Assembly (NCBI GenBank): GCA_963843575.1
Contig: CAWJKZ010000012.1
Coordinates: 1 to 64,000 of the forward strand
DNA length: 64,000 nt
Origin: an uncultured Acidobacteriota bacterium
GTDB lineage: Bacteria; Acidobacteriota; UBA6911
Reading direction: 5' to 3'
The position numbers and the translations under genes were made by a program. Each line of letters starts with the position of its first letter. Position 1 is the stretch's first letter. The notes beneath the pieces were generated by a model, which was not told where the DNA came from, ran no database searches, and saw only the letters and a program-made list of their open reading frames with translations. Shown here piece after piece: positions 46,382 to 49,715 of the stretch.

Positions 46382-46688
46382 GTGCCCATATACGAGTATC
46401 AGTGCTCTAATTGCGGTGAGGTTTTTGAAGCTTTCCAGAAGATTCACGACAACCCTTGTACGGAGTGCAAGTTCTGCCACGGACGGGTCGAGAAGCTGAT
46501 CAGCCACTCCAGCTTTCAGCTCAAAGGCGAGCGGCTGGTACCTTACGGATTACGCGCGCAAGTCCCAACCCTCTTCTTCCGGCAGCGTGGGGGAATCCAA
46601 ACCGGCGGACAAGAGCGACAAGGGAACCGAGTCGAAACCGGCGGCCGCGCCCCGCCAAAGGGAGCAAAACCGATTGAGGGGGATGTGA
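46382..46688 (+). CDS. FmdB family zinc-ribbon protein; frameshifted near 46527, 3' end approximate
   Basis: AAGGAGG RBS; MPIYEYQCSNCG...CKFCHG...KLIS...FQLKG, then SGWYLTDY in the shifted frame. Confidence 0.85.
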
Positions 46689-47198
46689 ACCCACCCAGTT
46701 CTCGGGGAACAGCGCAAGCTGGTCATCCACGCTGCAGACGAGGCGGAGCAGCACACCTCGAGCTATTACTGTTTTCCGCCCCACCGCTGGCAGATGCTTC
46801 GCTACGACCTGCTTACCAGGCAGGATAACGAGTGGGAACCCCTGCCCGAGCGTATTCTGGCCCGGGTTCAACACATCGAGGCGGTCCAACCGGCACGGCG
46901 CTGCAATTACGACTTCTACCGGATCCAGCTGAACGATCCGGGCATCCTGGGGGCGGCTGAACGGGAGAACATCGCCGCCGATCTCTACCCGTTTCTCGTT
47001 TACATCATCACCCACGAACTGGTGCATCTGGTGCGGCTGAGCAGCATCGTGGACGACCGCCGGCACGTCGAGGCGGCGCCCGAGTGCGAGGAGGCGCGCG
47101 TGCAACAAGTCGCGCGCCAGGTGCTTGCGCGCAGCGGACACCGCGGGTTCGATGCCGTGTTCGACAGGTTCTGCTCCCCGCTGTCCGCCGCCGATTGA
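46685..47198 (+). CDS. Hypothetical protein with HExxH zinc-metallopeptidase-like motif (start approximate)
   Basis: ORF 46794..47198 contains YIITHELVHLVR and a downstream CEEARV; the frame stays open upstream to about 46710. Confidence 0.6.
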
Positions 47199-47223
47199 CT
47201 CCCCACCGGGCTCCTGCAATAAT
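47195..47223 (+). promoter_or_regulatory. Putative sigma70 promoter for the selenoprotein operon
   Basis: TTGACT-N17-AATAAT with an extended -10 TG; AAGGAG RBS at 47265-47270. Confidence 0.55.
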
Positions 47224-47277
47224 CCCCACCGTGTTCGTCCGTCTCCGGGACGCTGTCACCGGCCAAGGAGATAGCCG

Positions 47278-47751
47278 ATGAAGCAGACCAACGAAATCCA
47301 GATCGGTGAGGAAGCGCCCGACTTCACGTTGCCAAGCCACCTGGGCACAAACGTGTCGTTGAGCGACTACCGAGGAAAGAAGAATGTCGTGCTGGCGTTT
47401 TACCCGGCCGCATTCACACCCGTCTGAACGATCCAGATGCCCTCGTACGAAGAAGACCTCTCCGAGTTCGAGCGGCACGATGCCCAGGTTCTGGGCATAA
47501 GCGCAGACAATACCCATTCCAACAAGGCCTGGGCCAACTCGATGGGGGGAATCTCCTACCCCCTGCTGAGCGATTTCTGGCCCCACGGCTACGTAGCGGT
47601 CAAATACAATGTCCTGCGCTCGGAAGGCATCACCGAGCGCGCCCTGTTTGTGGTCGACAAGCAGGGGATCATCAGGTACAAAGACATACACCCGATTGCA
47701 GACCAGCCCAGGAACAACGAGCTGTTCGAGGCATTGAAGCAACTAAGCTGA
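47278..47751 (+). CDS. Selenocysteine-containing peroxiredoxin (AhpC/TSA, AhpE-like), 157 aa, Sec50
   Basis: MKQTNEIQIGEEAPDFTL...VVLAFYPAAFTPV-TGA(47425-47427)-TIQMPSY continues in frame into ORF 47437..47751 (VLGISAD, YPLLSDF, ERALFVVDKQG). The TGA occupies the peroxidatic Cys position of PxxxTxxC. Confidence 0.88.
47438..47477 (+). promoter_or_regulatory. Tentative bacterial SECIS hairpin for the peroxiredoxin UGA
   Basis: By eye TGCCCTCG pairs with CGAG(C)GGCA, with an inner AGA-AGACC-TCT; apical loop G about 28 nt after the UGA; not computed. Confidence 0.4.
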
Positions 47752-47795
47752 GCTTCCCCGGGGCCGCGTCCCGGAACTGGACGGCCGGAGCACCT

Positions 47796-48485
47796 ATGCA
47801 CGATATCGCACGAAACTGCATCCCGTACACGCCCTTCACGGGTAAGCTGGAGCGTAGCAGGATTTGCCTGGTCACCACGGCGGGGGTCCACCTCAAGACG
47901 CAGCCTCCGTTTGTGCTGGCGGGCGACACGTCGATCCGGCTCTTGCCGGCCGCGGCGCAGGCCGGCGAACTCGTCATCAGCCACGAACACTACGACACAA
48001 CCGACGCGTTGAAGGACATCAACTGCATGTTCCCTGTGGGGATACTGCGCGACCTGGCGGCGGAAGGCTGCATAGAGGCGACGACACAGGAACATGTCTC
48101 CATGGGATTCTCCCAGGCGATGCGGGAAATCCGGGAAAAGACTTCGTTCGAGATCGCCGCCGTCGTCCGCAGGCTGAAAGCGGATGCCGTGCTGCTGACC
48201 GCCGGTTGACCACTTTGCCACCGGACGGTCGTCACGTTACAGCGCGCAATCGAGATGGAAGGCATACCGACGGTCCTGGTGACTGTCGATCCCGAACAAT
48301 CCTGGCAGGCGCGGCCGTCGCGCGCCCTGCACCCCGTCGGCTTCAAACTCGGCAACTCGCTCGGAAACCCCGGCGCCGCCGAGTTGCAGAAGGCGGTCGT
48401 GATGGACGCCCTGGGCATCATGCTCGATCCCCCCGAACCGGGCACCATCGTGGACAAAGAGTATCCCGCCTACTCCACTGCCTGA
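47796..48485 (+). CDS. prdB: PrdB/GrdB-family selenoprotein B (D-proline reductase PrdB-like), 229 aa, Sec138
   Basis: LVTTAGVH, F.LAGD, SHEHYD...KDINCMFP, then VLLTAG-TGA(48207-48209)-PLCHRTVVTLQRAIEMEGIPTV in frame with ORF 48255..48485; UxxC motif as in PrdB. Confidence 0.88.
48222..48236 (+). promoter_or_regulatory. Putative bacterial SECIS element for the PrdB-like UGA
   Basis: CG-GAC-GGTC-GTC-(A)-CG hairpin with the GGUC loop starting at +18 after the UGA; same loop and near-identical spacing to the E. coli fdhF SECIS as I recall it. Confidence 0.55.
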
Positions 48486-48641
48486 ATATTGCCTTCGGGA
48501 TGGCAGGGGGCGTCCGGGGACAGTGCGCCCCCGGGCGGATGGTCGTCCCAGGAGTTCTCTCGGGACCTGACCCCGCGTCCCCTTTTTGTGGATAATAGCC
48601 ACGCACGCGATCGCACTTTGTGCAGACGTCGAGAGGCAGGC

Positions 48642-49715
48642 ATGACTCAAGTGGACGGCCACGTACTGGTTGCCGACGTGGGGGGCACACACGTCGGCAT
48701 CGCTATCTTCGCACACAGCCGGAACGGCAGATTTAAACCGGTCCGGCACGAAACCCTGCTCAGCCGCAAAACTAGGAACTTTCCGGATGCGCTCAGGCGT
48801 TTTCTGCGCCGCAACGGGCGGCTCGAACCCAAGGTCACGAGTGCCTGCATCGATTTCGCCGGTCCGATTGGCCCAGACCGGTCGCGTGCGGTGCTCACAA
48901 ACCTCTCCTGGGGCTTCGGTGCCGACGAGATCCGAGACTCGACCGGCCTCGACGAAGTCACGCTGCTCAATGATTTCGAAGCGGTGGGGCACGGGGTGGA
49001 GACTCTGCTCTCCAACCGGCCGGAGGCGTTCACGCGCATTTCCCGGTCAGGGAAGCTCCCTTCCCCGAAGGGTGCGCGCAAGCCGACCCTGGCCGTCATC
49101 GGCGCGGGGACCGGGCTTGGGACGACGGTACTCGTACACGACGCGGGTGCGGGAAAGTACCGGCCTGTACCCGGCGAGGGGGGGCACACCGACTTCACGG
49201 CCGTCGAGGAAGACGAGTTCCGCATCGGCCAGTGGATCCGACGGAATGTGAACCTTTCCCCGGATGCACCCCTGAACCGGGAGAAGGTGGTCAGCGGCCC
49301 GGGGTTGGTCAACGTCTACCGGGCGCTGTCCGAACTCGAACCTGGCCTGGGCGACCGGCGCATCGCCTCCAAAGTCCTGTCGTCAGACCCGTACGACCGG
49401 CCGGCCGTCGTGGCGCAAAACGCGGACAAGGATCCCCTGTGCCGCAAGGCGATGGACACCTGGATCCGGTGCTATGCCGCCGCCGCAAAGAACTGCGCGA
49501 TATTCCCCCTGGCGCCCGGGGGCGTGTTCCTCGCGGGCGGAATCGCCGCCAAGATCCTGCCGGAATTCCAGTCGGGGGCTTTCATGCGGGAATTCACGCG
49601 CTGCGACGTTCCCAATATCCGGGCCATTCTGAAGCGCATCCCGGTCTTCGTCATCACGGACTACAGGATTGGGCTTTACGGGTGTGCGAATGTGGCGGTG
49701 AACGGCTTGCCGTGA
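48642..49715 (+). CDS. glk: Glucokinase
   Basis: ADVGGT, AGP, LTNLSW, LNDFEA, GAGTGLG, EGGHTDF, VSGPGL and GGVFLAGGIA. Confidence 0.92.
   Translation: MTQVDGHVLVADVGGTHVGIAIFAHSRNGRFKPVRHETLLSRKTRNFPDALRRFLRRNGRLEPKVTSACIDFAGPIGPDRSRAVLTNLSWGFGADEIRDSTGLDEVTLLNDFEAVGHGVETLLSNRPEAFTRISRSGKLPSPKGARKPTLAVIGAGTGLGTTVLVHDAGAGKYRPVPGEGGHTDFTAVEEDEFRIGQWIRRNVNLSPDAPLNREKVVSGPGLVNVYRALSELEPGLGDRRIASKVLSSDPYDRPAVVAQNADKDPLCRKAMDTWIRCYAAAAKNCAIFPLAPGGVFLAGGIAAKILPEFQSGAFMREFTRCDVPNIRAILKRIPVFVITDYRIGLYGCANVAVNGLP

Follow-up and report, generated by a model that had tools for sequence, protein, structure and literature searches.

A selenocysteine peroxiredoxin paired with an orphan PrdB-like UxxC protein: a candidate peroxiredoxin partner encoded in an uncultured acidobacterium

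To our knowledge one-Cys peroxiredoxins (Prx) need an outside reductant, and for most bacteria we know of no reductant that has been named. A locus of an uncultured Acidobacteriota bacterium raises the question of whether the gene beside a peroxiredoxin encodes such a reductant. The window, by which we mean the whole 64,000-nucleotide (nt) stretch analysed (contig CAWJKZ010000012.1), carries at 47195-48485 of its forward strand (all positions are window positions) a peroxiredoxin gene followed by a gene for a protein resembling PrdB of D-proline reductase, each with a TGA codon inside its reading frame. The initial annotation read both TGAs as selenocysteine (Sec) at the catalytic residue of each family, and proposed a compact selenium-based redox module in which the second protein could be the dedicated reductant of the first. 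We found that the coupling of the two genes is conserved, which points to a new kind of peroxiredoxin partner. The best explanation, which we hold with moderate confidence, is that a one-Sec AhpE-type Prx is served by an orphan protein of the GrdB/PrdB family, with a UxxC motif, as its dedicated resolving or reducing partner. The features on which this rests, including candidate selenocysteine insertion sequence (SECIS) hairpins, are as follows.

47278..47751, forward strand: gene of an AhpE-type one-Sec peroxiredoxin, 157 codons plus a TGA stop, Sec at residue 50 (U50), no Cys (open reading frame and homology)
47425..47427, forward strand: Sec codon TGA of the Prx, in PxxxTxxU (conserved TGA; independent contigs)
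47438..47477, forward strand: SECIS-like hairpin, 13 nt after the Prx TGA (consensus hairpin, alignment columns 14-53)
47796..48485, forward strand: gene of a PrdB-like (GRDB-family) selenoprotein, 229 codons plus a TGA stop, with U138-P-L-C141 and an invariant Cys8 (open reading frame and homology)
48207..48209, forward strand: Sec codon TGA of the PrdB-like gene, in UxxC (conserved TGA)
48222..48236, forward strand: small GGUC-capped hairpin (apical loop 48227-48230), 15 nt after the PrdB-like TGA, candidate SECIS (folding)

Two genes read through an in-frame TGA

The list of open reading frames (ORFs) made with translation table 11 splits both genes at these TGAs, the Prx into 49 + 104 amino acids (aa) and the PrdB-like protein into 137 + 76 aa. 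The uninterrupted frames run from an ATG at 47278 to a stop at 47749-47751 and from an ATG at 47796 to a stop at 48483-48485. The initial annotation had expected standard gene callers to fragment the pair, and public databases do store a 137-aa entry (P0003) and a 104-aa entry (P0126). Some database copies of the Sec-Prx are full-length with W at the catalytic position (P0123, P0125; TPVW, TKVW); since W stands there, the TGA was evidently read as Trp by gene callers.

The product of gene 1 matched Pfam AhpC-TSA (E 2.1e-38). Its active-site motif, P43-A-A-F-T47-P-V-U50 within FYPAAFTPV-U, fits PxxxTxx(C/U), and R121 is the conserved Arg, invariant in 51 sequences. The best solved relative was Mycobacterium tuberculosis AhpE (Rv2238c; E 5e-32), aligned over residues 6-139 with a shared PLLSDFWPHG block and with U50 placed on the AhpE peroxidatic Cys. 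When PDB sequences were ranked, the top seven were all M. tuberculosis AhpE (114 bits) and BCP-type Prx followed at 92 bits. By this ranking of PDB matches, and not by a subfamily-specific profile, the predicted product of gene 1 is an AhpE-type peroxiredoxin.

The product of gene 2 matched the NCBIfam PrdB model TIGR04483 over model positions 20-229 of 238 (E 2.2e-45) with 155 bits, below the cut-off of 300. It also matched Pfam GRDB (PF07355) over profile positions 220-346 of 347 (E 2.5e-5) with 24.2 bits, above the gathering score of 22, and the same Pfam family is carried by 112 of 120 listed database homologues. The TGA lies in LLTAG-U-PLC and yields U138-P-L-C141. Across 83 PrdB-like sequences C8 (in CIPYTPF), C141, H142 and R143 never vary and position 138 hardly does; HxHYD, D.N.VFP and MG(F/Y)(S/T)Q are further conserved motifs. 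The motifs and family matches of both products confirm that each TGA falls at a catalytic residue and that family sequence continues in frame behind it.

Both TGAs are conserved at the same aligned codon. The first survey set comprised 30 Sec-type loci (the window, 8 species genomes and 21 metagenome contigs); the Prx-site TGA was present in 27 of the 27 that cover the site and the PrdB-like-site TGA in all 30, which hold 23 distinct downstream sequences. At the Prx site TGA was also found in 10 of 11 loci of a phylum sample and in 29 of 29 Prx neighbours of a Myxococcota scan. Later sets were concordant, and each in-frame stop at the Sec sites was verified as TGA. Homologues have either Cys or TGA aligned at the two sites, and PrdB-like homologues at 37-54% identity carry TGC or TGT at the Sec position. 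Terminal stops of the orthologues vary among TGA, TAG and TAA, and the in-frame TGAs are invariant.

The sequence behind the TGAs is under purifying selection, since the ratio of nonsynonymous to synonymous substitution rates (dN/dS) between the window's own genome and its congener G001 (dS ~0.5) comes, 3' of the TGA, to 0.06 in the Prx gene and 0.088 in the PrdB-like gene. Neither value exceeds that found 5' of the TGA. Short-read contigs from three public soil runs, belonging to three studies, span the Prx TGA (47425-47427) and show no difference from the window; none of them reaches 48102-48485, so the PrdB-like TGA lies outside their coverage.

We found candidate folding signals 3' of both TGAs, the thinner one after the PrdB-like TGA. 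The SECIS-like consensus hairpin of the Prx gene has 14 pairs, one of them compensatory. Under synonymous-codon randomisation the Sec-type Prx folds had a median z of -3.28, with 14 of 15 distinct sequences below -1.5, and the Cys-type homologues a median z of +0.35, with 0 of 22 below -1.5. In the PrdB-like gene the GGUC-capped hairpin (-3.4 kcal/mol in the window) occurs in 17 of 23 distinct Sec-type sequences, in two registers (+21, +24), and GGTC at +18..+30 after the TGA is present in 23/23 Sec-type as against 13/54 Cys-type sequences. We take the GGUC loop to resemble that of the E. coli fdhF SECIS. An Rfam search at E up to 5 returned one chance-level match only (pRNA, 17 bits), and stem length, as given by a loose hairpin finder, failed to tell Sec-type genes from Cys-type ones. 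Single-sequence folds were unremarkable against dinucleotide shuffles (z -0.61 after the Prx TGA, +0.49 after the PrdB-like TGA), a test superseded by the synonymous-codon randomisation across orthologues.

The machinery for Sec was found in the own genome (G000; 88% complete, 27 contigs), where the initial annotation had looked to it as a check, with selA and selD broken into separate frames. A tRNA-Sec (74.6 bits; called SeC with anticodon tca by ARAGORN) and selB (373 bits) are present, as is selD (C13:704799-705723), which is split over two frames (192 + 134 bits) and has its own in-frame TGA. The selA gene (C8:2341-3716) covers residues 1-458 in at least four frame segments. It is intact in the relatives G009 and G025 (562 and 560 bits), which carry the pair and whose many-contig assemblies are likely short-read; in G001 and G008, assembled in few contigs, it is fragmented. 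Single-base indels are present in the own assembly, as is seen from the FmdB-type zinc-ribbon gene upstream of the pair (46382-46828): it has a one-base frameshift near 46527-46532, so that its N-terminal part stops at ...FQLKG and the expected continuation SGWYLTDYARKS lies in the +1 frame. Because selA is intact in relatives and other indels occur in the assembly, we read the broken selA as an assembly error, a reading that is not proven.

Four of these results speak against Sec decoding: the broken selA, the window's own Prx hairpin, which is the weakest of the set (z about -1.3), the failure of RNAalifold to find a consensus fold 3' of the PrdB-like TGA, and the window's PrdB-like downstream fold, which has no stability excess under synonymous-codon randomisation (z +1.0). 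Set against the conserved TGAs, their alignment to Cys in homologues, the SECIS-like hairpins and the purifying selection downstream, they leave us close to certain that both genes encode real selenoproteins.

Conservation of the pair and its selenium and sulfur forms

We took PrdB-like genes of about 40% identity or more as orthologues. Among 41 genomes (the own genome and 40 relatives) the pair was found at 5 of 5 orthologues, and it was found at all 8 genome-contig loci from Acidobacteriota, Armatimonadota and Myxococcaceae. The Prx lies directly upstream in 29 of the 30 Sec-type loci; the one exception offers no more than 55 nt on that side. Of 301 Acidobacteriota genomes sampled evenly across the phylum, 12 held the PrdB-like gene, and the pair was present in 11 of 11 additional genomes from this sample. 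In a Myxococcota-centred scan 30 loci of at least 40% identity could be tested, and 29 of them had the pair. These sets overlap and are not fully independent, with contigs that recur between them (for example L055/L256, L057/L147/L260, L052/L261 and L056/L234). The pair has cultured carriers, with Sec in both proteins in Anaeromyxobacter species (A. oryzae, including Red232, A. terrae, A. soli, A. oryzisoli and strain PSR-1) and Cys in both in Ktedonosporobacter rubrisoli, Tengunoibacter tsumagoiensis and Dictyobacter aurantiacus.

Linkage extends to the Cys forms. Ktedonobacteria yielded 389 loci, and among the best 80, which were examined, a Prx lies near the Cys-type PrdB-like gene in 62, upstream on the same strand in 34 and downstream and convergent in 28, with a median gap of 104 nt. 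With at least 3.5 kb of flank on both sides the figure is 43 of 53, and in a metagenome set it is 14 of 17 well-flanked Cys-type loci. Three observations weaken the case for obligate partners: 10 of the 53 well-flanked Ktedonobacteria loci have no Prx within their 4-kb flanks, Dictyobacter kobayashii and Ktedonospora formicarum likewise have none within theirs, and in three cultured Ktedonobacteria species the two genes are 1.4-3.2 kb apart. The genes inserted between separated Ktedonobacteria pairs differ, being a 142-aa protein in one case (L082 3757-4185) and a response-regulator/histidine-kinase hybrid in another (L189 4905-6173).

Outside this clade the association was absent. Around distant PrdB-family genes (28-39% identity, L265-L313) an AhpE-like Prx within ~2.5 kb was found in 0 of 49 loci, and one of the 49 had a 47-bit match to some other Prx. 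Most of these genes, whose hosts are Nitrospirota, Deltaproteobacteria, Planctomycetota, Spirochaetales, Gammaproteobacteria and others, carry TGA at the corresponding codon. The available text of two marine surveys gives near-equal counts of Prx and PrdB selenoproteins, 43 and 42 (PMC1088965) and 253 and 235 (PMC2398784). As a trace of the pair these counts are unsupported, given that the 49 distant genes without an AhpE-like neighbour include marine-type Gammaproteobacteria.

ORF clustering over 89 loci found no third gene common across lineages. Only the pair is conserved, since the flanking genes differ between lineages. That the own genome yields just two Prx matches at E <1e-20 likewise supports a specific association. 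Judged from gene neighbourhoods, the pairing has been maintained in evolution and is particular to this clade, and the adjacency reaches far beyond the related genomes in which it was to be looked for. That the pair is a functional unit seems to us very probable.

The sulfur forms bear on what selenium contributes. In five genomes of one acidobacterial family (L149-L153; G248, G078, G093, G106, G118) the Prx site is TGA and the partner has TGC or TGT, giving CxxC. A quick tree of the PrdB-like proteins of the first survey set divides Sec from Cys forms at a single branch (support 99). Strict co-switching of the two genes between Sec and Cys was rejected: one switch suffices in this tree, and the five genomes are mixed. 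Since Cys/Cys pairs and the state of Sec-Prx with Cys-partner both exist, selenium is optional to the module, which on these sequence variants is not obligately selenium-based. Of the selenium-based redox module first proposed, the pair has stood and selenium as an intrinsic part has not.

What the PrdB-like partner may do

The paired Prx has no conserved second cysteine, among 24 Cys-type and 24 Sec-type loci alike. Cys-type Prx have exactly one Cys in 24/24; Sec-type Prx have none in 15/24 and a single non-conserved Cys, at varying position, in 9/24, and the window Prx has 0, as the initial annotation had it. Because a conserved second cysteine is lacking, the paired Prx would depend on a resolving thiol from outside. 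Among the Cys proteins most closely related to the window Prx, many are ~248-aa fusions with a C-terminal glutaredoxin (Grx) domain carrying CPDC (for example P0132, P0136 and P0148), and this Grx-fused sister clade sets a precedent, by fusion, for a CxxC reductant dedicated to its Prx. In a quick Prx tree the Grx-fused (support 95), PrdB-like-paired Cys (99) and PrdB-like-paired Sec (92) proteins form separate clades, and the deep nodes are weak. In our reading the Grx domain and the PrdB-like protein are putative alternatives as dedicated donors for the Prx. In one genome (G100) a second Cys-type Prx, 39% identical to the window Prx, lies ~0.8 kb from a Sec-Prx/PrdB-like pair (L146 5169-5594).

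That the genes stay side by side in many soil bacteria suggests that the partner recharges the Prx. In the relay that we propose, the Prx selenolate would reduce peroxide and become a selenenic acid. Sec138 of the PrdB-like protein would then attack this selenenic acid to form an intermolecular Se-Se bond (Se-S or S-S in Cys variants). Cys141 would resolve that bond, so as to free the reduced Prx and leave the partner with an internal selenenyl-sulfide, and a general disulfide reductase, probably the thioredoxin system, would reduce the partner. We infer the direct relay and its direction from gene context and chemistry, and we consider it about as likely as not that the Prx is resolved or reduced directly by its partner.

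Structure prediction was uninformative about the partner. An AlphaFold2 model built with 83 sequences (predicted local distance difference test, pLDDT, 95.6; predicted template modelling score, pTM, 0.93) is a single domain of 229 aa in which U138 lies where strand 131-135 meets helix 139-154. A PDB sequence search with the PrdB-like protein gave 0 matches at E up to 1, Foldseek with the model gave none at E 1e-3 or better, and a VIA structure search placed the model among generic Rossmann-like alpha/beta folds, with a best Z of 9.1 to LacI/periplasmic-binding-type chains. Since the structure matches only generic Rossmann-like folds, no function follows from the fold.

Several of these findings weigh against the PrdB-like protein as a Prx reductant. 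Its model bears no predicted likeness to known Prx reductases. The invariant Cys8 could form a metal site together with C/U-x-x-C-H. The five mixed genomes mismatch Sec and Cys between the two genes, and co-switching gives no independent evidence because the Sec/Cys split needs a single switch in the tree.

The PrdB-like protein could instead be the catalytic selenoprotein of a small-molecule reductase, like protein B of the glycine and proline reductases, with the Prx as no more than a co-expressed guardian of its oxidation-prone Sec. D-proline reductase itself was rejected as its identity, on the sub-threshold TIGR04483 score, the lack of a PF09338 match, the lack of a conserved third gene and the homologues in Ktedonobacteria, which are aerobic. 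PF09338 (the pyruvoyl subunit PrdA/GrdE) gave no match in the own genome, which is 88% complete, and control genomes were also silent, hence it counts as not found only; since a PrdA/GrdE homologue was not found, we take the PrdB-like protein not to be a D-proline reductase. The Ktedonobacteria Cys homologues bear the database name 'D-proline reductase PrdB', which is probably wrong. For a reductase of another substrate speak the full-length PrdB homology (E 2.2e-45), the motifs HxHYD, D.N.VFP and MG(F/Y)(S/T)Q conserved beside UxxC, which suggest more than a simple redox centre, and the distant family members that are selenoproteins without a Prx neighbour. However, the PrdB-like gene is the sole GRDB-family match in a genome that lacks a PF09338 match, no third gene is common across lineages, the family occurs in aerobic Ktedonobacteria, and a guardian role leaves the constant lack of a resolving Cys in the Prx unexplained. 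We consider such a reductase unlikely.

The same chemistry might also serve signalling, with the Prx as a peroxide sensor that oxidises the PrdB-like protein in a regulatory relay, and bulk peroxide removal not the purpose. The pair is rare (12 of 301 sampled Acidobacteriota genomes), and the own genome has other Prx genes, with only two Prx matches at E <1e-20 in all. Prx-based redox relays are established, according to the available part of PMC8113037. Yet the PrdB-like protein, predicted as a single 229-aa domain, appears to lack a DNA-binding or output domain, and the response-regulator/histidine-kinase gene between the pair in one species is not conserved. A sensor relay thus strikes us as improbable.

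Less probable again is a site formed by Cys8, Sec/Cys138, Cys141 and His142 that binds a metal or selenium/sulfur, which would make the PrdB-like protein a carrier or metalloprotein and not a reductant. C/U-x-x-C-H resembles metal or haem ligand motifs, and C8, C141, H142 and R143 are invariant, with 138 nearly so, across the 83 sequences. Against this, UxxC is described as redox-active in GrdB and PrdB in the part of PMC13188914 available to us.

A reading of the TGAs as true stops, as lesions of pseudogenes or as errors of assembly, with both genes mere fragments, is very remote and already largely refuted: assembly indels do occur (the FmdB frameshift, the split selA and selD) and a truly dead selA would preclude Sec synthesis, but the same TGA stands at the same codon in every orthologue across four phyla, selection and SECIS evidence continue 3' of it, short-read contigs from three studies carry an identical Prx TGA, and selA is intact in two many-contig relatives and fragmented only in few-contig assemblies.

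We return to the PrdB-like protein as partner of the Prx. A specific candidate reductant, in selenium and sulfur versions, adjoins an AhpE-type Prx in at least five phyla. Somewhat tentatively, and with slightly less assurance than for the pair in the window, we suggest that orphan PrdB-like proteins are an unrecognised class of Prx reductase or resolving protein, of non-thioredoxin fold, acting through an intermolecular Se-Se, Se-S or S-S bond, with Sec usable on either or both sides. If this is true, they would be a new kind of Prx electron donor, and a widespread protein now mislabelled as proline reductase would gain a function. Genes named 'D-proline reductase PrdB' outside Stickland fermenters would then be misnamed, and the UxxC chemistry of GrdB/PrdB would have a second, antioxidant use. 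The states Sec/Sec, Sec/Cys and Cys/Cys would form a natural series for asking what selenium buys in a two-protein relay. It would also expose an annotation fault, in that both genes stand in public collections truncated or with W at the TGA.

Locus layout and relation to known systems

The two genes have putative expression signals, of which the promoter match and the AAGGAG site lie, as does the 44-bp gap between the genes, where the initial annotation had placed them.

47195..47223, forward strand: sigma-70-like promoter match TTGACT-17 nt-AATAAT with TG before the -10 (consensus match, 10/12 positions)
47265..47270, forward strand: AAGGAG ribosome-binding site, with the Prx ATG 7 nt downstream (read from sequence)
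47787..47790, forward strand: GGAG ribosome-binding site, with the PrdB-like ATG 5 nt downstream (read from sequence)

The intergenic spacer is 44 nt (47752-47795). Sites like the promoter match number 2 in the region, as against 0.4 expected from shuffles. A second promoter-like site, CTGACC-18-GATAAT (9/12), lies at 48567-48596 ahead of the glucokinase gene (48642-49715). Behind the PrdB-like stop, at 48511-48537, is a GC-rich hairpin that lacks a T-run. This hairpin and the promoter-like site before the glucokinase gene suggest that the pair is its own transcription unit, and the two genes probably form a unit with its own promoter and are co-transcribed. The window neighbours of the pair are the FmdB zinc-ribbon gene, a 134-aa ORF and glucokinase. 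The 134-aa ORF (46794-47198), upstream of the pair, contains the motif HELVH and matched nothing in Pfam or NCBIfam; its homologues occupy the equivalent position in 11 acidobacterial-lineage loci (185 aa in L061), and the window copy seems to lack a proper start.

Each gene adds a member to a selenoprotein family already known. Published family lists bear out the claim that both families have Sec members: Sec-peroxiredoxin (TxxU) and 'proline reductase PrdB' (UxxC) appear in the available text of the Sargasso Sea and Global Ocean Sampling (GOS) surveys (PMC1088965, PMC2398784), and by these sources the Sec-Prx family has been known for more than 20 years. Anaeromyxobacter dehalogenans is listed with three peroxiredoxin selenoproteins and one proline-reductase selenoprotein in the accessible part of PMC1794560. 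The literature searched yielded no published Sec form of the AhpE subfamily. Nor did the main texts of the open literature, which were the scope of the search (supplements and subscription journals lay outside it), yield a description of the Prx/PrdB-like pairing, in agreement with the initial annotation. The conserved coupling of an AhpE-type Prx to an orphan PrdB-like UxxC/CxxC protein therefore appears to be undescribed.

Other selenoprotein pairs resemble the window pair in that two selenoprotein genes share one transcription unit and are thought to share a redox process. The available sections of a 2026 review (PMC13188914) name grdA-grdB, prdB-prdC, frhA-frhD-hdrA, SAO and Tso, and those of PMC2398784 add Prx/SelW and Prx-like/AhpD-like; the Prx/PrdB-like pair is in neither list as far as these sections go. 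Taken singly, the window Prx is like PrxU of Eubacterium acidaminophilum, of the Sec-peroxiredoxin family TxxU, in having Sec at the peroxidatic Cys position of PxxxTxxU, as far as the sources consulted describe it. It belongs to a different Prx subfamily, however, with a match to NF040737 of 73 bits against a cut-off of 270. The window partner is like PrdB of D-proline reductase (Clostridium sticklandii type; TIGR04483) over its full length (~230 aa) and in having Sec in UxxC at the equivalent place, a motif tabulated for PrdB in the part of PMC13188914 available. In contrast to that PrdB it scores at half of the family cut-off, has no PrdA/GrdE found beside it in the genome, and neighbours a Prx.

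The closest functional parallels are peroxiredoxins with a known donor. AhpE is a one-Cys Prx whose external reductant is mycothiol/mycoredoxin-1, as given in the available part of PMC8113037. Like AhpE, the window Prx is small and has one catalytic residue and no resolving Cys; unlike that of AhpE, its catalytic residue is Sec. In AhpC/AhpF, AhpC/AhpD and the Haemophilus influenzae Prx5-Grx hybrid (structure 1NM3, listed in the accessible part of PMC8113037), a Prx adjoins or is fused to its own electron donor of CxxC type, as in the window pair. The window partner differs from Prx5-Grx, AhpF and AhpD in that, by model matches, it appears to have neither a thioredoxin nor an AhpD fold, and in that it may itself carry Sec.

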